DNA of 64,000 nucleotides, taken from Lama glama. Its lineage: Eukaryota. Of the stretch, positions 1-15,200 are shown one piece after another (position 1 is the first letter of the stretch; every line of letters begins with the position of its first letter). The position numbers and the translations under genes are program-made. The stretch covers positions 26,104,001-26,168,000 of the forward strand of contig CM052816.1 in NCBI GenBank assembly GCA_028534125.1, read 5' to 3'. The notes below the pieces were generated by a model. The model had not been told where the DNA came from. It made no database searches and worked only from the letters and a program-made list of their open reading frames with translations.

Positions 1-365
1 TCTTTCTCTTTCTGGCTTTTACTTCACTTAGAATGATGATCTCCAGGTCCATCCATGTTGCTGCAAATGGCATTATTTCCTTCTTTTTTTATGACCGAGT
101 AGTATTCCATTGTATAATTATACCATGTCTTCTTTTATCCAGTCATCTGTTGATGGACATTTCAATTGTTTCCATGTCCTGGCTATTGTAAATAGTGCTG
201 CTGTGAACATTGGTGTACACGAGTCTTTTTGAATTAGTGTTCCTTTTGGATATATGCCTGGGAATGAGATTGCTGGATTACATGTAAGTCTGTTTTTACT
301 TTTTTAAGGACTTTCCCTACTGTATTATATACAGTGCTTCAGTGAACATTAGGGTACATGTGTCT
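1..365 (-). mobile_element. L1 3' end fragment (lineage-specific)
   Basis: Antisense L1 ORF2-end/3'UTR text (ctccaggtccatccatgttgctgcaaatggc...gtagtattccattgt...gatggacattt); closely similar to the copy at 30590-30740. Confidence 0.9.
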
Positions 366-899
366 GGAAAATACAGTTTTTTAAAGGGTATTATTTTCTG
401 CCTATGTGATCTTTCTTGAAGACTCAGAGGGAAATTCAAGAATGTTGTGCGTCAATTAGTATGTCTAAGTACTCCTTCAGAAGAAAGAAAAACTGTTTTG
501 AATGCACATTGAATCAGAGAAAACTGGGGCTCTTAAAATAAGAACTGACATACAGCTTAGGAAGTATGACTGGTCAGTCCGTTGAGATGAGAGCTGTGTC
601 TCTTGTTGCTTTCCTTCTCTTGTCCAGTGTGAGTTCCCCCCCATTATTCACAGGGTTTGCCCTCTGCTCATGTGAAGATAGAAAGCTTATCTTTCCATAG
701 TCCTTACAGGTATGCAGGTTGATATAACCAAATAAAGAAAAAAAGTGATAGTGCCAGAGCTGGTAGTGGAAGGGCAGTAGTTGGGGAAAATCAGGTGAAT
801 TGGATGTAAAAGACTGTGGTGGACACTAGAGAAAGCATGTGTGGAGGCTTGCCTCTAAAGCTGCTGAGGTGAGGCCAGGAGAAAATTCTAGTGAAGAAA

Positions 900-1925
900 T
901 AAACCTATGCTCTTCTCCTCCTCCCATCCCAGGACAAGCTTCAGTGGTTTTTGTGGGGAGACAGGTTAGGACATAGGAGACTTCTTTTATTCTCATGTTT
1001 GTTGGTCTTCTGAGTTGATCAGTATCAAGTCACTTGCAAAGAAGATGGCAGCTCTGCATTCAGATGAGTGCTGCGAGACATTTAGGAAGAAGGGAAGCAG
1101 ATCAGAGCTGCTGTATCTTACTGTACGTTAGATTAAGCAGCCCGGTGTCAGGGCTTCTCATAAAGGTCAAGTAGTTACTAGTCTGGGTGCCATCTATCAG
1201 TGTCTGAGGTTATGTTCTTACTCAAGATTTCCTTTAATCAAAAAATTCAATGGATACAAATTTCAGTTTAGGACGATACCAGGCTTTCCCATAATGCATA
1301 ACCCTCCAGAAGTATTTCAGAGAATGTCACAAATGGTTTGTTTGGGAAACTTCCTCCCCAAATGTCAACTGGATCAGAGTTTGCTGTGAAATCAGAACAT
1401 GTGAGAGTAATCATATCTGCTAAGAAAATGATAGTTTGGAATCCCCACTTTCCAAAACATTTCACAATTTCCATTGTGTTTTCTTTCCCCGCTGAGAACA
1501 CTGTATCCTATGGTATCTCTGTCTAGTTACAAATGGCCTCCAGGCTATATTCTACAGCTCAGTCAGCATGCTGCCCAACAAAAGTTAAATTCATTTATAA
1601 TACATCTCAGGTATTTGGCAGGGACTTATCAATATGCTTTGGTTTATCAAACAGAAAGATTAACATCTAGTTTGTGTGTTTTTTTTTCTCTAACACAGAT
1701 GTATCTTTAAAAACATCTAGACATCTTGTTCAAATATTTTTGCGCAACATTGGATATTGTTCCAGAAAAGGTATGAAAGAGGCTCTGTGAAATATTTTGG
1801 TGTGGTCTAATGAGTCACACAAAGAGCAGCACACAGAAACACCTTGCAATTTTTCAACACATCAAAAACGTGTTCAGATCATTAAAGGAAAAAGAATTGG
1901 AAACATGCCATGCCTATTTTTTGTT
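900..1925 (+). mobile_element. Decayed Ty3/Gypsy (sushi-like) element A, 5' part: gag C-terminus/CCHC, protease, RT palm
   Basis: Manual translation: IQMSAARH plus a degraded LCLYC (~1058-1130, cf. the PEG10/sushi gag end); IV-GIP..HN (~1430-1470); HLRYLAGTY (~1603, cf. KLDLRGAY); NILVWSNESHKEQH (1791, cf. DILIFS..EEH); QHIKNVFRSLKEKELETC (1855, cf. HVR.VL.RL.E..L..K.EKC). Many stops and frameshifts. Confidence 0.55.
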
Positions 1926-2059
1926 TGTTAGCAAATTTTGGCAGTAGTCCCAATTGTTTACACGGGGGAGCATGAGTCAATCTTATTTAACATGATGTCA
2001 ATGTGTTTTGAAAAAAAAATGTGTAGAGTATATCATGAAATCATGCTCTGCCACTAGAA

Positions 2060-2230
2060 TTAGATGGTGTCAGAACTAAAAGAGCTGAGAGGGTATCCAG
2101 CTTAATACTCATTTAAATGATGAGAAAACTGGGGTCCAAACTTGTGAAATGACAAGATCAAATAGCTAGTAATTTGCAGACCTTAAGTGAATCTGATCTT
2201 ATCGTCTTTGTCTACTATTCTTTCTACTTT
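2060..2230. mobile_element. MIR fragment
   Basis: Core-like ctcatttaaatgatgagaaaactggggtcc. Confidence 0.6.
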
Positions 2231-3979
2231 TCCATAAAGACCGTGATATATTCTCTCTGTGGACCTTCTCCTCACATTTAAAAGACCACTTTGGATAATA
2301 CCTCTATTGAGTCAATCAAAGTTTATCAGACTATCCAATAAAAGACTGAAAATTAAAACCAAGGCTAAATTATTACCCAGCCAATAGAACCTCTTCATCT
2401 CTTTCATTAAGCTAAAAAATTAAAACAACTCTTCACGTAAGTAGGAAAAATTTATGTTTTCTCTGAAGTTTACTTCATGATTCTTGACTGAATTTGACCT
2501 GACTTAGAACCCCTTTCTGTGACAGGGAAATAAATTTTAAGGGAAGAGCAATATTGTAGATCAGGGAGAGTATTAAAACCTTCCAAAGGGGAATTTGAAT
2601 GTCTTGAATCAGAATACTTAAAAGGAACCATGTTTGGATCCTGACATACCAAGGGATGGAGAAGAGAGAAATTTCTATATGAGCTTTGGTCATAGTAAGC
2701 AAGATTGCCTTTCTCAAATCTTTAGAGTCAGTAGTGGATGTGAGAAGGACCTGGGTCTAAACCTGAATGTGTCAGACAAGCTGTGCTTTTAAACTTGAGT
2801 GTTAATTTCTTTACCGAAAAAATGTTTAAAACAATTATTGACCTCATGGTGTTGCAGTAAGCTCTTGGCAAATATAAGTTACATTTTTATACACTAACAA
2901 CAAACTATTGGCAAAAGAAATTAAGAATCCCACTTAGATAAGCACCAAAAAGAATAAAATGCTTAGGACTATTGAACCAAGGAGTTGAAAGATCTGTACG
3001 CTGAAAACGAAAAAATATTAATTAAAGAAATTGAAGAAGACACAAATATATGAAAAGATATTCTGTGCTCATGGATTGGCAGAATTAATATTGGAAAAAT
3101 GTCCGTAATAGCCAAAGCAGTCCACTGATGCAGTGCAATCCCTGTCAAAATTTAATGTCATTTTTTTTACAGAAATAAATAAAACAAACCTAAAATTTGT
3201 ATGGAATTACAAAAGAACTTGAATAGCTAAAACAAATTTGAGGAAGAAAAACAAAGCTGTAGGCATTTTACTTCTTGATTTCAAGCTATATTACAAAGCT
3301 ATAGTAATAAAAACCGTATGCTTTTAGCATAAAAACAGACACAGAGATCAACGGAACAGAATAGTGAGCCCAGAAATAAATCCATGCATTTATGGTCAGC
3401 TAATTTTCGACAAAGGAACCAAGGATATACAATGGGAAAAGTAGTCTCTTCAACATATGGTGTTAGGAAAATTGGATATCCATATGCAAAAGAATGAAAC
3501 TGGACCGCTAATTTACACCATACACAAAAGCAATTCAAAATGGATTAAAGACTTGATTATAAGACCTGAAACCACAGAAGTCTAGAGGAAAACATAGAGG
3601 GTAAGCTCCTTGATATTGTTCTTGGCAATAATTTTTTGGACTTGATATCAAAAGTAAAGGTAACAAAAGCAAAAATAAACAGTGGGACTACATTAAACCA
3701 GAAAGCTTCTGCACAGCAAAGGAAACTGTCTGCAAAATAAAAAGACAATCTGAATTGGGAAAATATATTTGCAAACCTCATTTTCAATAAGGGAGTTAAT
3801 ATCCAAAATATACAAGGAACTCATATAATTCAGTAGCAAAAAACTTAAATAAGTCATATAAAAAATGGACAAAACTGAAAAGAAGTTTTCCCAAAGAAGA
3901 CACACAGATGGCCAGTAGGCACATGAAAAGATGCTCAGCATCTCTAATCATCAGGGAAATGCAAATCAAAATCACAGTG

Positions 3980-4078
3980 GTGGTGGGGAGCATATAGCTC
4001 AGTGATAGAGTACATACTTAGTGTTCCTGGGTTCAATCCCCAGTACCTCCATTAAAACAAAACAAAACAAAACAAAAC
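3980..4078 (+). mobile_element. tRNA-derived SINE (camelid vic-1-like)
   Basis: A box tagctcagtgatagag, B box gggttcaatccc, (AAAAC)n tail; TSD aaaatcaca(g/a)tg at 3968-3979 and 4079-4090. Confidence 0.9.
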
Positions 4079-4727
4079 AAAATCACAATGAGATGTTACC
4101 CTACTCTTGTTAGGATGTCTGTTACCAAAATAACAAAAGATAACATACTGGTGAGGATGTGGAAAAAGGATTCACTTGTGCATTACTGGTGGGAATGTAA
4201 ATTGGTGCAGCCAAGATGGAAAACAGTTTGGAGGTTCCTAAAAAAAAAAAAAAAAAAAAAAAAAAAGTAGAACTACCGTATAATCCAGGAATCTTACCTC
4301 TGGGTGTATATCCAGAGTAAACAAAATCCCTGTCGTGATGAGATATCTGTTTTCATTACAGCATTCCTCACTATAGCCAGGATATGGAAACTATCTATAG
4401 ACTGATGAGTGAAGAAATAGACAATGGCATATCCAGGCTTCTGAAAGAAAGCCCTGCCATTTGCAATAACATGGATGAAACAGGAGAACATTATGCTAAG
4501 TGAAATTAGCCAGAAAGAGAAATACAAATACTATATGGTTTCATTTATACATAAAATTTTAAAAAGTTGAACTTGTGGAACCGGAGAGTAGAACCATGAT
4601 GACCAGAGGCCAGAGGGTGGGGAAAACGGGAAGGGTTTGGTCGAAGGGTACAAACTTGCAGTTAGAAGATGAGTAACTTCTGGGGAGGTAACGTACAGCA
4701 CAGTGACTAGAGGTAATACTCTATTGT

Positions 4728-5102
4728 GCCTTCCTAACTGGTCTGCCACCCTTACCACCTACAGTCTGTTCTCAGCAGAGTAGCCAGAGCAATCATTTTA
4801 TAAAAATAACTAATAAACAGAAACCTTAATGGAGTTGGGAGACTAGAAAGGGGAGCTCGTACACCCTACAATGATAGCAGAGACCAGAAGGAAGAAGAAA
4901 TAATCCTTTTCTTGCCAAGAGCTCAGCCAATGAAACGCCACGGACTCTTTGTTTACTGCAGCCCTCCCAGCTTCCTTTTCCCCTCAATAAAAGTACTCTT
5001 TCACTTTCTGTGTGGAAACTTGCATGTTGGCTCACCAGAGTTGCAGACACCAAACTGCAATTCTCTGCTGATCCTGAATAAACCCACCTTAGCTGGAAAA
5101 GA
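4728..5102 (+). pseudogene. Retroposed non-coding RNA 3' end (L2 fragment plus ERV LTR ending at its polyA site)
   Basis: L2-like 4730-4810, LTR-like 4812-5096 with CCAAT and AATAAA (5077-5082), short A-rich tail; flanked by aata(c/t)tctattgt at 4715-4727 and 5103-5115; the host L1 3'UTR resumes after it. Confidence 0.7.
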
Positions 5103-5194
5103 AATATTCTATTGTATTCTTGACATTTGCTAAGAGATTAGATCTTAAGTGTTTTCACCCCCCTCAAAAGTAACTATGAAAAAAACCTTCAAGT

Positions 5195-5920
5195 TGATAA
5201 CACTTCACACACATTATGATGGCCAAGTCAAAAGGACAGATAATAACAAGGGGTGGGGAAATGTGCAAAAATTAGAACCCTCATGTATCACTGATAGGAA
5301 TTTAAATTAGGGTAGCCACTTTGAAAAACAGTTTGGCAGTTTCTTAAAAATTTCAAAATATAGTTACTGTATAATCCAACAATGCCACATTTAGACATAT
5401 ACTCAAGAAAACTGAAATAGGTTCATACAGAATCTTCTACAGGAATATTCAAAGTAGCATTTGTCATAAGAGCCTAAAAAGTGGAAACAACCCTCATGTC
5501 TGTCAACTGACAAATAGATAAATAAATGTGGTCTATCCATACAATGGAATATTATTCAGCAATAAAAAAGAATGAAGGAATAATGTATGCTGCCACATGA
5601 ATGAATCTTAACATTATGCCAAGTAAAAGAAGCCAGACATAAAGGCATGTATTATATGATTCTACTCATATGAAATGTCCAAACAGGCGAATTCATAGAG
5701 ATCGAAAGTACATTAGTAGTCCTAGGGCTGTGAGGGAAATAGGTTGGGAGGTGATGACTAAGGGTGTAGGATTTCTTTTTAGGTGGTAAAAATGTTGGAA
5801 ATGGACTTGTGATGGATGCACAAGTCTGTGAATATGCTAAAAACCATTTAATTGTACATTATACATGAATAAATTGTGTGATAAATGAATTATATTTCAA
5901 TAGAACTATTTAAAAAAAAA
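5195..5920 (+). mobile_element. L1 3' end (L1MB-like)
   Basis: ORF2 end and 3'UTR (ggtctatccatacaatggaatattattcagcaataaaaaagaatgaa...gaattatatttcaat) with polyA. Confidence 0.9.
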
Positions 5921-6265
5921 GGAGAGACGAAGGCATTGGCTCAAGATATTATCATGTCAAAAGCTGATCTAGTACAAATGGTATTAAGATGTTGAGGACA
6001 GAAATTGTCGTAAAGAGAGTAATCTGCCCAGAATGCAGAATATGGGCATTGGAGGTAAAAGCACTGGAGGTTTGTGTTCATTATTAACCAGGAAAGTTGT
6101 GATCTAGGCTCATAAAAATGGCTTATGGTCATTGAGGATGGTCTTAGTTGCTAGGGATGCACCAGGATGATGTTGATTCCGTTTAACACCCATCCCAATG
6201 ATCTGCCTCTTTGCCACTCAAGTTGCTGGGTGCTGTAGAGTGAGGTAGTGCTGGTCAGTGATCTT

Positions 6266-7537
6266 CTGAGGCTTTATCTGATTATTTCTTTTGGAACATA
6301 GTCTGTTTCTTCATTTTGTTTGACTCAGTGTTGGCTCCTATGTGTTAGATAAAACAGCTGCCTCTCCCAGTCTTGAAGGAGTGGCCTTGTATAGGCGACG
6401 AACCTTATCTTTCAAACTTTCTCAGCTCTTGGTTGTTTCTCAAACCTTTGTGATTGTCCAAGCAGCCTATTTCATGTTTAATGTCTCGCAGTAGTTGAAA
6501 GTGTGCCAAGAACTGTCAGTATCTCAACAAGGAGGTCCTCAGTCAGCACTAGATTCAGGCTGATTGAAAGCTAGACCCTTAGGCAGCAGCTTTTAAAGAA
6601 TGCAAATGTATACAGTCCTATAGGACTGCGAGCATCAGCCCCACAGACCACCAGTGCCAGGTGATCTAGAGGGGTCCCTGGTGACAGTCACAAAAACCGG
6701 GGGGCCAGAAACATGGAACAACTCCCCTCTGGGAAATAGTGGTGCCTCGGGCTACAGCTCAGGGAAAGTTGCAAAGATGGAGCCCACTGACTGGAGCGAG
6801 GCAGAGGGAGAATGTAAAGATACTACCTGCTAGAAAAGAAAAAGAAAAAAAAAAAAAAGAAAAGGAAAAAGCCTAGAGTTTTAAAAGCTTAAAAGAAAAG
6901 AAAAAGATAAAAAAGAAAAGAAAAAGAGGGCACCTCCTGGCTGGAACGAGGCAGAGAGAAAGTGCAAAGATGGTGCCTACCTGTCTCCATGCCTAGGGAG
7001 CACCCGATAGGCCCCCAAATGTGTGTCACGTCAGACGACTGCCCATCAGGTCAACATGCCATGATAGCAAATGAGCCTCTCCCACTCCGCATCCAGGCGC
7101 CCCTAGATCAGGTGCTTCCGTGCTGGGCCCCAGGGCGGGGAGGGTCTGTTCAGGGCCATTGAAGAGCTGTTCCTCAGGTGGTTGTAGCCTCGAGAGCCTC
7201 AGGGACTCAAGCTTTGTTGGTTTTCAAAACTAGGTGTTTAGGAGGCTCATCTCTCAGGTGCCCAATGTGGGGTTCAAACCCTACTCTCCTCAGGGAAAAG
7301 ATCCAGGGTTTGAGTTCCATCCCAGCTGGGGGTTGCTGAGCCCAGGGCTGGGGTTTATGGTGGGACTGTGTCCCAGCCTCTCCTGTTCTGTCTGATTTGG
7401 GCCTTACCTTGTCTGCCTGATGTTACTCAGCCAGTTTTGTTGAGAAGAAATTGTCCCATACGTAGCTGTAGGTTCAGTGTGTTTGTAGGATGCTGTGCAC
7501 TCGGAATTGTCTTCCATCGCCATCTTGAATGAGAACC
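6266..7537 (-). mobile_element. L1 5'UTR plus the first codons of ORF1, 3'-truncated
   Basis: YY1-type start caagatggcg on the - strand (~7518-7527); ORF1 start MKKQTMFQKK*SDKASE from the ATG at 6314; TSD ct(g/a)gtcagtg(a/t)tctt at 6251-6265 and 7538-7552. Confidence 0.85.
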
Positions 7538-7585
7538 CTAGTCAGTGTTCTTGACAGCAGATTTCTCACCATTAATTAAGAAATT

Positions 7586-7690
7586 GGGGTGGGGGGAAGG
7601 AATACAGCTCAGTGGCAGAGCACATGCCTGGTCTGCACAGGGTCCTGGGTCCAATCCCCAGTACCTCCAGTGAAAAACAAACTAACAAAT
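7586..7690 (+). mobile_element. tRNA-derived SINE (vic-1-like)
   Basis: cagctcagtggcagag...gtcctgggtccaatccccagtacctcc plus A-rich tail. Confidence 0.85.
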
Positions 7691-7749
7691 CACACACATT
7701 TAGACTCTTTCATGGGTAGTGGGAGGAGGTGGATCAGAGAAAGGGGAGG

Positions 7750-8280
7750 GAGCCAACGTTTACTCAAGATCAGACGCTATACGTGATGTACTCTATTACA
7801 GGCTTTCTGCCTACCTTTTAATTATCGCAATCACACTGTGAGATAAGGATTATTATTTTCAATTTAGAATTGAGTAAATTGAAGCTGAAAAAGAACAGCA
7901 GGTTGGTGGTCACCAAGCCTACAAACAGCAGCAGTAGAACACAGGCCGACCTTAGAAACATCGTGTGTTTGGTTCCAGATTGCCATGATAAGCTGAATAT
8001 CACAGTAAAGCAAATCACACGAATTTTTCAGTTTACCAGTGACTATAAAAGTTATATTTACACTATTGTCTATTAAGTGTGCAGTAAGTCTAAAAAAAGT
8101 CTATTTCTTAACTTTAATATACTCTATTGCTAAAAAAATTGCTAATTAACTGACCACACGCCATTGCCACAAACCTTCAATTTGTAAAAACTGCGATGTC
8201 TGTGAAGTACAACAGGGTAAGCGCAATAAAACGAGGTATGCCTGTGTAAAACCAGGTTTGTTTCTTGTCCAAACCTTTGA
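7750..8280. mobile_element. MIR interrupted by a Tigger1 derivative
   Basis: MIR core-like ctgtgagataaggattattattttcaatttagaattgagtaaattgaagctg. Confidence 0.6.
7942..8244 (-). mobile_element. Tigger1 internal-deletion derivative (MITE)
   Basis: Both Tigger1 termini present: caggccgaccttagaaacatcgtgtgtttggttccaga... and ...gcgcaataaaacgaggtatgcctg. Confidence 0.9.
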
Positions 8281-9459
8281 CTTGTTCACTGAAATGTCCG
8301 TTAATGTGATTCAAAATTCCAAATTTGAACCAGCATAGGAAATCGACAAACTCGAGTATGGGGCCTGCAGAACTGAGGGCCAACAAAATCGCCATACAGA
8401 TACTGACCAAAGTAATGCTGCCCTGATGAGTCAGGTTTGTCTAATCAGATTTACCGCTGATGAAGAGGATGAGGTCATGTGCTGTGGCCTGGAGACGGGG
8501 ACCCAGGGGGATCTTACTGACCGTTAACCTCACCTTCCCTTGCTGAACCCCTCTGATTGTCCTCCCTCGCAGATGGTCAAAGTACCAGCCATAACAGTTA
8601 GACGCCCTGCTTGCTTCCCAGGTCCCCACTGGCACCCAGGGACTGCTTTGTGTGACAGGGATCCAGGCAGCTGCTGTGAGCTTGGAGGTCAGACTGTTAA
8701 GGGCCCAGGACTTGAGGACACCTGCCTCTTGCATGTAAAGACGGAACAAATGACAACATTTGTTGCCTTGGATCTGAGCAGCCCAGGCAGCATGTGTGAG
8801 GGCCTCACAAGCCTGTTTCCTTCATGAGCATGAGTCCCTCTTTTCATATCTGGAGCAGGGAACAGATGTTTCATCAAAAGACACATTTAAAATAAAGATA
8901 ATTATGCAGTGAGAGGCTTAATTACATCAGCCTATTCAGGTCCACTTAATTGCCTGACAGCCCGCGTGCCTCCCACTTACTTGCGACAGAGGCTCTCGTG
9001 CTTTGCTGGTTTATCAGATCCTTTGATGGTTCGAGGAAGATGTTATTGACTTAGCAATTCGGAAAATATCAATTCCTTGTATACAGCTGGTAGAGGAAAA
9101 TGTAAATATTTTTAACAAGCAATAAAGAATCATCACTTTCCTGGAGGTGGCTTATGGTGTCCTATAAATGATTAATAACCAGAATGACTTAGAGAGGTAA
9201 GCCTGAACAAGATATTTCATCTTTAGTTGTCTCTTGGTTGTATTTGAAACCTTCCTGTCAAATTAAAATCCCAGGGAGAAGGTGATTTGCTAATTTAAGG
9301 AGGCCATTTGAGTCATGTGACAATGGCAATTGACCAAAAAAAAAAAAAAAAAAACAGCTTTATGAGGCTATTTCCATCTCTCCTTAACTTTAAAGGATTA
9401 GATTAGCTCTGCTTCAGACTAATGTCCTATCTCTCTTTTATTCCCCCTAGACCACCCGT

Positions 9460-10810
9460 CTTTTTGAAGTCACTGCCTTTATTTTCTTTCACCATTCATT
9501 TCCTCCGCCAGACCTTGCATCCTGACTCCTGCCCACACCAGTCTTGTGAAAACAAATGTCAAAAGCCTGCTTCTTTTTAGTCTTGATCCCATGACGTGGT
9601 CTGGAGCATTCTGTAAAATCCTTCCACCATGGCTTCCAGGATATTACACCCTCCTGGATTTACCCTGGAATCAGCCAGGATCCCAGCAGGAAACAGATGG
9701 CACATTCACACTGAGTGATTGAAGGGAGTGTAACCTAGGGGCCCTGTACAAAGATTGGGGTAGCCAGAGTGGGATGGGACAGCTCTCTGGGACTAGAGAC
9801 AGGGGGAGCTGTGACTACCACTGGAGCGAGAGGCAGGAGCAGTTAGCTAATCCACTGAGCTGTGGATTTCTGAGAGAAATGTAGCTAACCTGAGATGACC
9901 CCCTAGGGAGGGAGTTAGGGAAGTAAATACCCCAACATCATGGTCTTTCCAGTCTCTGATCTCTGCCAGAGCTTCCTATTGGCCAAATCAGACCCACTGC
10001 CAGAGGACAAGGGAACCAGTGGAAACAGCTCACGCAGATCAGCCTCCCTAAGCACAGAGCTGGGTAGAAAGGGGATTTGGAATGGCCAGTGGAAAATACT
10101 CACTACATTCCTATCTCTCTTGTGTTTTCCTTTTAGTCTCACTCTTGGCACTTCTATCATCATTTCTGTAAGTATAGTGCTCCTAGGGCTCTGTGTACCC
10201 CTCTTCTCCTTGCTCTCGACAGTCTTACCTGGTTCTTGTCTTCCAACATCGTTGCTTTGTTGTTGGTTTCCAAGTCCCTATCTCTAGTTGTTTTCTTCCA
10301 AGCTCCATTTGTTGGGTGTGTCTGTATTAAATAACTCGCCACTATGTCCATTTTAACACATTCAAATGGAAGTCATCTGCTCCATTTGGTTCTCTCTGAA
10401 CTCTACCCTGGGTTATTCTTCTTCTCACAGAGACTTAGGCTAGCATCCTCACACTCGTCTTTGTTTCCTCCCTCTTATCCAGCCAATTGGCTACTAAGTT
10501 CTGTAAATTCATCTCCAAATTCTCTCCAATATTCCCTCCCTCCTTTGTCGGCAAGGCCATAAGTCATACTCTCATTTTTTCTTATAGGCACTTTTCTATA
10601 ATAATGTCCTTGCTGCTAGTCTTTAACTTTTACATTGTGTTCGCCACACTGCTTCTGAAGTTGTCTTTTCTAAAGCAGTTCACATTTTCTTAAACTCTTA
10701 AGTAAAAGCCTTCATTGTCTTAATGTTATCTAAAGAATAAGCTCAGTAGTGTAGGAGAAATTTTATAGCCCATTTCATCGTAGACCCAACCTATCTTTCC
10801 ATTCTCAGAG
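9460..10810 (+). mobile_element. L2 fragments interrupted by an LTR
   Basis: Pyrimidine-rich L2 ORF2/3' text (catggcttccaggatattacaccctcctgg; gttctgtaaattcatctcc; ttgtcttttctaaa). Confidence 0.65.
9665..10106 (-). mobile_element. Old ERVL-class solo LTR
   Basis: ggatcccagcaggaaacagatggcacattcac...cctattggccaaatcagacccactgccagaggacaaggga...tcagcctccc; subfamily not assigned. Confidence 0.7.
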
Positions 10811-10899
10811 CTTAGTATACATCCTTTTGAGTAATTCATACTTCATACCTCCCTTCCTCTGTCTTCTCTCTTCCTTTAAACTAAGATATGCAAATGCAA

Positions 10900-12930
10900 G
10901 TGTAAATGAGGGAGTAATCCGTATCACAGGACAAGGAGTGAAGATGATTGTGGTGATGGGAGAGAACATGCCAGTGTAAAGAGAGAGTTTTTATTCAGGG
11001 CTGTGGATTGTTGCCATGTGAGAATGTAGAGCTTTTGTTTTGGGATATTTATTTTTCATCCTATATTTCAACCTATATATTTCAAATTTTGAATTTTTAT
11101 GTGAAGCTCCTATGGATGTATCTGCAAGAATCAGTAATCATACAAGTTTATCATGGGTCCAGGATCTGTTTGTGTTCAAGCCTCTTTGACAGTTTCAGTG
11201 CAGTCCAACTCTTAGGAGGCACATCAGTCATCCCCCAAAGAAAGCAATTTGGACTTTCTGTGTGCTATGTGAGGTACCAGATCCAGCCACTCGTTTTCCA
11301 GTGGGAGTCAATGGCCATATCTCATGCACTGAACTATAAGAATGTAAGAACTATAGTAATGTGGTTAAAAAAAATGGAACGAAGCAAGGATCTGATGATT
11401 CTTGAAGGTTGGAAGCTGACACCTGCTCACAATCCTACCTCCTGAGAGATTTTGGATAAGTTTATCAATTTTCCCAACACATATTAGCAAAACCAGCTAG
11501 CTATCTGTGGAGTGATTAAGGGAGAAGGCAATGAAGTGCTGTTTTTCTGAAGTGGTGGCATTATGGGTGACTTGTGTCTTCTAAGAGAGTGACCCTGGAT
11601 ACAGCATTGACTCTAGAATTCTGACCATGGGATAGCCATATTCGACAGCAATGTCAGCTAGGATGTGGATGGAATGCTTTGGATGAACTCATTAAAGGGT
11701 AGGTTTTGTGGAATTTCATATACCGAATTCTGCATTCTCACCTGGTCATCTTAATAGAATGGGTCAGTACCTTGACTAGAGAATTAAATGAGGTCTTAAG
11801 AAAGTGTATGATGTATTGTTGAGAGCATTAGACCCTCCAGTTTCTTGGAATTGATAGACTTCTGCAGGGCTTGAGTTTCACCAAAACTCCCACCATAGCA
11901 TGTAACCCTGGGGATGTCTGATGTGCCCACACACACAGTGGCTTGCAGGGTCTCTCATGGGTACTTGAAAACAGCATACATTGCTAGGTAGAGGCAACAA
12001 TGACAGTGCTGTAGTAGGGCCAGGTGCCGAGTGCTTGCGTTACCACTCTGAGAGTCAACAAGGCAAGCAGAATGCTAGGAGACTAACTGAGACCACTGGT
12101 TAGGAAAACCTCCTACTCCTAACCAGTGTACCTCTTTGGACAGCCTCATGGTGGACGTTGTTTCAGAGCTCACATCCTCCATCCTCCTGTAGTCATGATG
12201 ATTGACACACTTCCTTAGATGGTGCACTTTATCCCCCAAATATCACCATCCCTCTGTTCTTCCCAGATTCATGATGATTTCTGCAACCCTTGTCATGAAG
12301 GAAGATATTTATGTCATGGAAGTACCGGCCTTTCCAGATAGCAGATACTTGGTCTGAGTTTGTATCTTGGATTTTGAGGGCACTGTTCAGATTCCTTCAT
12401 GTCCACCCACATGTTTGTCATCACCTGCTACAGACTGATGGCATGATGGAACAATTCAACTGCTCCTTCAAGAATGCCCTATTCCTACTTACCCTACACA
12501 AATCGTGACTTCTTTAGACACTGCAGAATCTGCACAGAACCACCCACCTCCTCATCCCCCCACAATAAAACCACTCTAGCAACTAACTCTTTGCTCTTCT
12601 CAGATAGTTAATCAGTGCCTATAGTAGTTACAGTACACTTAGGAGGACTTGCAGGACATACTCTGATTATCCTAGAAACCATGTTAAACATAATTTGTCT
12701 ATCACTAAACCCTAGGAGAGGTCATTTGAATAAGATACAGCATCTGAGTTTGTTCTTAAGAAATATCTGTGCATACTTAGAACTATAGGCTTGGTCCCTG
12801 GGAACTAATGTTGCCTTTGATGACTAGCGTTCGTGAATGGCCTTTGAAGGCCATTCTCAGCTCCAGGAACCTGGGAATTACTTTCTGCTGCATAAATATA
12901 GCCATGTTGCTTTGTACCCCATGATGGGAA
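10900..12930 (+). mobile_element. Decayed Ty3/Gypsy element A, 3' part: RT thumb, RNase H, integrase with GPY/F region
   Basis: ITGQGVKM (10923), WERTCQCKE (10957), KLLWMYLQES (11104), SVIPQR..VCYVRYQIQP..WESMAISHAL (11224-11330), HGYLKT (11956), SLMVDVVSEL (12142), VMMIDTLP*MVHFIP (12191, cf. VVVDRFSKM.HFIP), IADTWSEFVSWILRAL..QTDGMMEQFN (ORF 12311-12508), AESAQN (12523), LGPW (12790), LHKYSHVAL (~12885). Confidence 0.85.
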
Positions 12931-13324
12931 CATGGGAAAGCAAGTGATGGACAACAGCCCTGATCCAGACTTGCTCTCTGCCTTCTCTGTGGAGATGCTC
13001 TCTACCACCCCCAGCTCCACAGAAGTCTCATCAAATGGCCTGACTCAAAACAGCCTTTCCCCAAACAGAAGATCCTGAAATTTAGAAAGCCCCACATCCC
13101 TTCCTTGTCAATCATAATCCTTTCCATCCATCATGGCCCAGTTCAAGGGACTCCTTGTTTGGGGGAAGTGTTTCCTCATCACCCAGCCAGAATGAATGGC
13201 TCCTTCCTCTGAGCTCCCATTGGCATCTCCTGGAGGAGATGTATGGATGTATGTATGGCAAAAGTATGGATGCCAAATTGTATGGAGACTTCACGTGATA
13301 GATCTCGTACAAAGAAGAAATATC

Positions 13325-13505
13325 AAGTTGTTTAACTCACAACCACATTGTGAGATAGTATTTTAGCTCCACTGATAGGTAAGAAAACTAAGGCTCAAAA
13401 AAATATTATAACTTGCTTAAGATCACACTGATAGTAAGTAGTGGAACCAGGATTCATATATGAGTCTCTTTCACATTAAAAGTCTATGTTTCTCTCTACA
13501 GCTCA
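13325..13505. mobile_element. MIR
   Basis: ataggtaagaaaactaaggctc...acttgcttaagatcacactgatagtaagtagtggaaccaggattc. Confidence 0.8.
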
Positions 13506-13679
13506 GCTTTTAAGTTTATTTCATTTATTATGTGATATATTTAGTCTTTTACTTCTGAGTTGCTAAGTCAGTTGCTTCAGGGATCAAGAGGGTAATATAA
13601 TTGTGAGGAGTGGTCAAATGTAATTCAGCAAAGATAGTGCATGCTTAGCTTAAAACATTCAAATCAGACACCCAGCAAA

Positions 13680-13745
13680 ACAAGCCAACAAGCAAGGCTG
13701 GAGGCCAGATTTGCCTACAGGCCATGAGTTTGTAAAGCCTGGTTA
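13680..13745. mobile_element. hAT-Charlie (MER58-like) terminal fragment
   Basis: ggccagatttgcctacaggccatgagtttgtaaagcctgg. Confidence 0.55.
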
Positions 13746-13889
13746 AACACCTGATTCTACAACTAAAGAACTTCATGATGGGGCCTGAAAACAACTCTTG
13801 TTAGCACACCCTCAGTGTCTTGTCCAAGCCCCTTCACAATGTAGATACCCAATAGGTGTCTACTCAATTAAAAGGAAAAATTTTAAATT

Positions 13890-15200
13890 TGCCTTAAATC
13901 TTAAAATTAATAATCATTTTGTTTCTAGAGACTCTATCCATACCAAGATAATTTAAAACTATTAAAATGGTTGGGTTAAAAATCTACCCCTCTCAACCAC
14001 CCATCTAGAATTCTGAGGTGAGAAGTGAGACACCAAGGCCAAAACTTACTGCTTGGTCTGATTCCCTTTTTTTTTTTTTTTTTTTGCCTCAGAAATCATA
14101 AAACAGATGCTTGGTTTCCCAGTGGCCCTGAAGATGTGGCCTGCTGAACAGGACAGAGTGATTTTACCACTGAGATGTGTTTTATTATTCACAAGCTCTG
14201 CTTAAATGAGGGCATTACACAGGGAAGCCTTGAATGAAGTTTAGCAGGCCTTATGCATATGGCGGTGGGAGCAGAGGTTCTGGCCAGTTCTTATCTCTGT
14301 AGGTTATCCTTCCCCACCAGCCAATACATCAGTCTAATTGGCTTCAAGGAGAAACCCTGGTATGTGGTTTTCAGAAATGAAAGAGAATTGCTTCAAGGAA
14401 ACTGAGATCCAAAGAACTCAGTCACTTACTGTTGGTTTTCTGACAAGAAAGATTTATGGATAATCTTTTATAAAAATTATAAAGCCTCTGAGCTAAAAAT
14501 AAGTACCTGACCCAAACTAGAGGATGAAGAGATTATTTTGTCATTCAGGAATGTATGTGCCTTTATGTTCTATTATTGTAGACTTTGTATAAATTTACAC
14601 ATACTAATTTTCTCAGTATGAAGTTCAAGATTGTCCTTAAAATAGAAGGCCCTACTGAAAGCAGAGTTCCCAAATTTATCTTAAAGGAGAGGAGCAGGAT
14701 AATTGTCCTGTAATGATTTTAAACCCTTGCTCATAGTAGAGTCATTTCAAGCAAATACTGATAAATTTTGGAAAACTTTCCAATAAACTTTGAGGTTTCA
14801 ACATCATGTATTATCATTCTGTGGCTACATTAACTACTATTTTGAAGGGTAGCCACAAAGACTGACCATGTGCAACTGGAAATCTTAAAACTCTTTCCTT
14901 ATGTTTATTTAAATGTAATTACCACATGTTTTGAATTAAACTTTGTACTAGTTTGCCCAGATTTCTTCAAATAAACTTATTCTTAGACAGACCTATATAG
15001 TACACTAATAACATGTGCAGGGCAATCTACTCCTCTGACATTAACTGCTTTGTTTTACATCCTCACTGTTTAGTTTGCATCTTGGGACATTCTCAGTAAA
15101 TCTCAGACTTGTCTTAGTTCCTCCCAGCAGTACTTGAGATGTTTTGAATTTTCTGTTGATCTTGGGATTTTGACTTGCCAAATTTCACCCCATTCTCTAG
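13890..15200 (+). mobile_element. Decayed Penelope-like element (RT plus GIY-YIG)
   Basis: FVSRDSIHTKI (13918, cf. VSFDV.SLFT.I), GITQGS..SLAGLMHM (14211), LEDEEIILSFRNV (14517, cf. ME.E...LPFLDV), TLYKFTHTNFL (14582, cf. TLYRKPTHT..YL), RSRII, ENFP, FPYV, then LFYILT..ILSKSQTCL (15049, cf. VVY.I.C..YIG.T.R.L). Confidence 0.65.

Follow-up and report, generated by a model that had tools for sequence, protein, structure and literature searches.

The window analysed here, a 64,000-nucleotide stretch of the Lama glama genome, carries on its + strand broken pieces of sushi-type Ty3/Gypsy sequence. These are a Gag capsid (CA) remnant at 8245-8540, a likely but weak remnant of zinc knuckle and protease at 8600-9330, and an integrase remnant at 11940-12900 in which the zinc finger, the catalytic core and a C-terminal part can be aligned. 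The interval from 10880 to 11940 probably represents the heavily decayed RT thumb, RNase H and linker of the element to which this integrase belongs. Between the two groups lies an interruption without Gypsy signal (9400-10880), a block of younger interspersed repeats (2817-8245) occupies most of the stretch between 1920 and 10923, and 900-1920 is single-copy sequence. A first-pass annotation had read 900-12930 as two full protease-RT-RNase H-integrase elements, one inside the other. Element A was said to stop within RT near 1920 and to resume at 10923, and the 9.0 kb in between to hold element B.

Pfam was blind to both the capsid and the integrase remnants, finding a retroelement family in none of the 10 open frames and none of the eight frames read through stops. 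Similarly, RTL1 and 25 intact Gypsy polyproteins used as tblastn queries gave nothing in 900-12930 below E 0.3, and NYNRIN tblastn, a PDB search and single-sequence frameshift alignment yielded no match in the region. Rfam placed no family within the 64-kb window. The remnants were scored with a home-made profile scorer, which tolerates frameshifts and evaluates codons by a neutral-decay model that includes CpG loss, using a broad chromovirus set and a vertebrate sushi set that includes Gag (155 aligned rows on the reference P0275). RTL1 and PEG10 served as positive controls and reached 283 and 350 bits, respectively. Because the settings of this home-made scorer for gaps and decay were altered from one run to the next during tuning, we relied on empirical nulls, namely 500 GC-matched genomic stretches for end-to-end tests as well as Markov-simulated or real-genome nulls with CpG-aware scoring. 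A first profile scan was dropped because its shuffled sequences had regained CpG, which inflated the nulls. The background comprised 570 kb from 57 stretches, scanned on both strands, where the top peak was 11.9 bits and two peaks reached 10. Finally, 21 overlapping profile segments were scanned domain by domain over 1-14500 on both strands, with 18 nulls each.

The top peak of all 64 kb, both strands included, is the integrase at 12,189-12,807, with Viterbi scores of 40-50 bits, where the nulls peak at 22-27. In forward mode it reached 28-31 bits, compared to 5-9 for the nulls and 11.9 for the maximum of the 570-kb background. The local alignment (12189-12807) crosses 14 stops and five frameshifts. 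The catalytic core, scored over 12100-12620, stands at Z 17-20 with 0/500 nulls as high; the zinc finger was equalled by none of 500 GC-matched nulls and the C-terminal part by two of 500. All clear integrase peaks of the 1-14500 scan fall at 12236-12807, and a single minus-strand integrase peak at 3977, within a SINE, scored 9.0 vs. a null maximum of 8.8. Among clade profiles, which are unequal in size (4 to 25 sequences), amphibian sushi elements scored 28.0 bits on the integrase, followed by reptile elements (23.0), unnamed chromoviruses (21.5) and fish (12.4); the remaining profiles gave 12.9 for other Gypsy, 12.3 for plant, 8.0 for ERV-L, 3.7-10.1 for ERV1-type and 0.8 for NYNRIN. This DDE integrase with its N-terminal zinc finger is nearer to Gypsy than to retroviral integrases. 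Scores far above all nulls thus confirm what had been proposed for the QTDG/HFIP region, i.e., the integrase of a decayed sushi-type Ty3/Gypsy element. The letters quoted in that annotation do exist: KEKELETCHAYF is read at 1885-1920, ITGQGVKM at 10923-10946, and, inside the catalytic core, HFIP at 12225-12236 and QTDG at 12431-12442. However, the integrase is the only one of these motif sites to exceed chance.

A Gag capsid remnant, which had gone unreported, precedes pol on the same strand, with a modest score. Stops and frameshifts break its frame, and a multi-copy repeat (7923-8245) adjoins its 5' side. It forms the second peak of the unconstrained whole-window scan (11.6-12.9 bits, + strand, ending at 8,488), its 12.9 bits topping every peak in the 570 kb of background (11.9). 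Scored in a 550-base tile, it reached 14.7 bits, a value attained by none of 300 simulated and none of 436 real tiles, and one of 500 GC-matched nulls was as high as the capsid. In the 1-14500 scan its margin was narrower, since one of the 18 nulls hit 11.3 against 12.2. The same tile remained at background level for integrase, RT and RNase H, and 8245-8540 failed when read as integrase. By clade, the capsid scored 14.5 bits with the amphibian profile and 7.8 with the fish one; PEG10 (2.7) and RTL1 (1.3) fell well below and give no support to the special link to these two genes that had been suggested. The amphibian sushi profile therefore ranks first for integrase and capsid alike, and this ranking suggests that both are closest to the chromovirus/sushi clade, the order among chromoviruses being soft because profile sizes differ.

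The neighbouring 8600-9330 is less clear. Zinc knuckle and protease together were matched by 1/200 and 3/500 GC-matched nulls, but by 11 of 150 simulated ones, and the protease by itself is at background level (35/200 nulls as high). An integrase profile applied to 8236-9330 beat all 200 real nulls, yet 24 of 150 simulated nulls matched it, and a local scan of this interval gave no integrase peak.

Immediately upstream of the integrase, the RNase H signal is suggestive only, with 51/500 nulls as high for the whole domain and 10/200 GC-matched nulls for each half. Followed upstream from the integrase, the sequence remains colinear as far as about 11,480, within the range of simulated nulls. The RT thumb at 10880-11260, where element A was thought to resume, was equalled by 237/500 nulls, no RT or RNase H segment rose above its 18 nulls in the segment scan, and profiles of other Gypsy, ERV-L, ERV1, RTL1 and PEG10 did not rescue 10880-11900. 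Along the PR-RT-RNase H-IN order, NC-PR and RNase H are thus weakly positive and no RT was detected. Beyond the integrase, the chromodomain (12900-13250; 341/500 nulls as high) has a background score that fits absence and erosion alike. Searches for an LTR pair and for local duplications found none; an LTR pair is not expected, given the age of the element and its overwritten 5' flank.

Common multi-copy repeats occupy at least 4.6 of the 9.0 kb between 1920 and 10923, as summed from blastn and nhmmer matches to the background set (a maximum of 41 hits at any one base). They lie at 2036-2214, 2817-4760, 5198-5922, 6270-6744, 7256-7529, 7546-7700, 7814-8245 and 9661-10082. We take 2817-4760 and 5198-5922 to be L1 3' ends and 6270-7529 to be L1 5'-type sequence; at 2900-4270, words of the L1 ORF2 C-terminus can be read. 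Presumably, tRNA-type SINEs stand at about 3965-4080 and 7546-7700 and a DNA transposon at 7923-8245, and we assume the names L1, MIR, SINE, Tigger/MER28, MLT and L2 for repeats of the window. From its motifs, 9400-10880 presumably resembles an L2-like LINE. It holds the multi-copy LTR-like repeat 9661-10082, which matches two background loci (E 2e-6 and 6e-6). The best of 618 protein-by-strand scans of this interruption reached 8.1 bits, away from any pol domain, and none of its six frames contained a Pfam family.

Neither strand of this gap scores for RT, RNase H or a second integrase. Targeted tests of 2190-2740, 5900-6270 and 8236-9330, both strands considered, gave no RT or RNase H, and no DNA similarity was found between the gap, as the claimed element B, and 10880-13000, as the claimed continuation of A. 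An element B on the minus strand, with RT placed by eye at 8230-9400 and integrase at 5900-6300 and 1930-2900, was also tried and failed or was marginal against nulls; the best minus-strand candidate of the gap, at 24 bits, was matched by three of 12 gap-sized nulls. Two full elements, one inside the other, are consequently an extremely improbable reading, even though the quoted motifs exist and the gap does contain Gypsy sequence, since about half of that gap is common repeats and its Gypsy signal is gag. No domain scores twice in 1-14500, contrary to the duplicated RT, RNase H and integrase that had been described, and the domain scans do not recover an outer pol set running colinear across an inner element. 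A single set of domains scores, which is the very outcome that the first-pass annotation had named as incompatible with its model. What stands of the proposed Gypsy internal region is a real sushi-type Ty3/Gypsy fossil; the second element and the nesting are unsupported.

The protease and RT attributed to element A on the + strand at 900-1920 are at background level, with 206/500 and 294/500 nulls as high, respectively, and profiles of RTL1, PEG10, five other-Gypsy anchors, ERV-L and ERV1 did no better over 900-1960. This interval matched no repeat across about 660 kb and has a single hit in the genome, and both ends of the join drawn from 1920 to 10923 are at background level. A reduced form of nesting would see in 900-1920 a very eroded protease-RT, originally joined to the sequence from 10923 onward, with a second, gag-protease-only fragment in the gap. 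Its attraction is that an RT core is exactly what the 8245-12900 element is missing and that, by eye, frame 2 of 1500-1900 offers a correctly ordered series of RT-like words (FGLSN, L*NILVWS, HIKNVF..L.E). However, RT profiles leave 1400-1960 at background although the information expected from RT at 0.8 substitutions per site is 63-90 bits, above the 51-61 bits of the integrase core (six held-out relatives), and minus-strand "motifs" that were equally persuasive by eye (8230-9400 and 5900-6300) were rejected or left borderline by the same tests. Even allowing that RNase H and thumb barely score beside a proven integrase, so that the method can overlook real but eroded parts, RT included, we hold this reduced nesting to be very unlikely.

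We consider that 8,245-12,900 is probably one dead sushi-type (chromovirus-clade) Ty3/Gypsy LTR retrotransposon on the + strand, interrupted later. Gag capsid and integrase share one strand and the canonical order, and both bear many stops and frameshifts. The distance between their anchors is 3,748 bases, compared to 2,733 expected. Removing 9400-10880 reduces this spacing to 2,268 and removing the multi-copy repeat alone to 3,325, and the fact that the expected span falls between these values supports a single element. Similarly, the gag of the gap, with its weak NC-PR, completes the downstream integrase and does not duplicate it. Nothing significant ties the two pieces, neither RT signal nor LTR pair nor chromodomain, and 9330-11940 lacks a significant bridge, as would be the case for two unrelated scraps, i.e., separate integrase and gag insertions or a chance gag match beside a lone integrase fragment. 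Background peaks of up to 11.9 bits also come near the gag score. Such an origin is unlikely, though not negligible, in view of the common strand, the right order, the near-expected span and the same best clade; by a rough estimate, a capsid-specific peak this high would arise by chance on that strand, in the 5 kb upstream, with odds below 1 in 1,000.

A single element of this kind would have integrated once by the ordinary Gypsy route, through reverse transcription in a Gag particle and insertion by integrase. This may have taken place in an early mammalian ancestor and would have been followed by neutral decay. Later, an L2-like LINE and an LTR element would have inserted into the interval separating protease from RNase H, and RT may in part have been lost or worn away. 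The 5' end of the element would have been overwritten by a DNA transposon, by SINEs and by L1 copies. It is plausible, from the presumed name of the repeat, that the element is older than L2. It makes no protein and cannot move. That it represents an unusually complete capsid-to-integrase copy of the extinct tetrapod-type sushi lineage, from a family whose internal region is absent from Repbase and Dfam, and a pre-radiation Gypsy-in-Gypsy if 900-1920 were its RT, is doubtful at best.

The longest stop-free frame in 8200-13000 counts 162 codons, with stops and frameshifts throughout; the locus thus lacks the open frame that a domesticated SIRH/RTL gene would keep under selection. The same genome carries RTL1, NYNRIN and PEG10. 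DNA searches of the genome with the locus returned the locus alone, such searches being insensitive to old copies. Better-kept sister copies were also sought in this genome, where the searches gave endogenous retroviruses and domesticated genes only, the extra candidates reaching at most 6.4 bits. As regards sequencing data, words were sampled from 7900-13100, and 14 of 24 runs, filed under five organism labels, contain at least 96% of them. In four RNA runs, which come from two studies, word counts give 32-47%; this RNA signal may be intronic, exonic or DNA carry-over.

According to the passages cited, Gypsy elements make up a small fraction of mammalian genomes, and their human traces are recorded in Repbase as MamGyp-int, with MamGypLTR1/2, and as internal portions X1_LR-X4_LR (PMC5753468). 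Gypsy relics of such kind are thus already catalogued in mammals, and the Lama element most likely belongs with them, where we set it by description. As far as the cited description goes, both are old Gypsy internal sequence without coding capacity, from a placental mammal, whereas the Lama copy retains gag and integrase remnants and has no detectable LTR. Searches of open-access literature gave no description of nested Gypsy fossils in a mammal, which is weak evidence. PEG10 and RTL1 are described, in the passages cited, as sushi-ichi-related genes without integrase (PMC10570562). Their copies in this genome (L067 and L014) share with the locus a broad sushi-ichi-related stock and the gag-protease layout but, on that description, retain open frames and lack integrase, whereas the Lama copy is broken and has one. 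Their capsid and pol profiles were at or near background on the locus and thus give no sign of direct ancestry.

Outside mammals, Gypsy elements are reported to be abundant in non-bird reptiles (PMC4350176) and metaviruses to be perhaps active even now in reptiles, frogs and fish (PMC11011659), as stated in the passages cited. Intact sushi chromoviruses of amphibians and reptiles, e.g., those of Bombina (P0121), Leptobrachium (P0274-P0286), Sphenodon (P0299) and Anolis (P0352), provide the best-scoring profiles for integrase and capsid and have the same domain order. Compared to them, the Lama copy has about 19-24% identity to the reference, many stops and frameshifts, and no RT or chromodomain signal. 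The locus neither shows a new mechanism nor gives any hint of function, and its importance is modest. It is usable as an anchor for repeat curation, and the presence of capsid and integrase in one copy would link these two parts of the extinct lineage to living amphibian and reptile elements.

The copy of RTL1 that the Lama glama genome itself carries (L014, positions 1326-5588) is 1,420 residues long, which exceeds the length of most relatives among the matches listed (about 1,330-1,390), and its C-terminal end consists of a long acidic tandem repeat. In the scan of background stretches with the Gypsy profile, the top peaks (L089, L076 and L083) were grouped close to the window, no farther than 100 kb away. 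L089 presents plus-strand peaks at 7757 and 8966, in the zinc-knuckle (7.5 bits) and RNase H (9.1 bits) columns, which follow in order on one strand; L076 harbors an RT (10.4) and an RNase H (11.9) peak on opposite strands, at 1737 on the plus strand and on the minus strand. The peaks in these three stretches may be scraps of old ERVs, scraps of Gypsy elements, or chance matches.

Within the window, three diverged L1-type 3' ends (1-330, inverted relative to the other two, 4126-4590 and 5229-5920) exhibit a mutual likeness of 58-66%, and the L1 block also includes a tRNA-type SINE and a stretch at 4790-5100 that is presumably LTR-like.

No host gene was identified within the 64-kb window; four RNA runs, which come from two studies of the reproductive tract, contain 32-47% of the words sampled from 7900-13100, and this span may lie within a transcribed unit. 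The stretch at 8245-9330 shows the highest CpG retention of the seven stretches measured (0.29, against 0.09-0.19 in the others) and contains TGAGTCA twice, at 8427 and 9309, words that we take to be AP-1-like. These two features could hint at a putative regulatory reuse.
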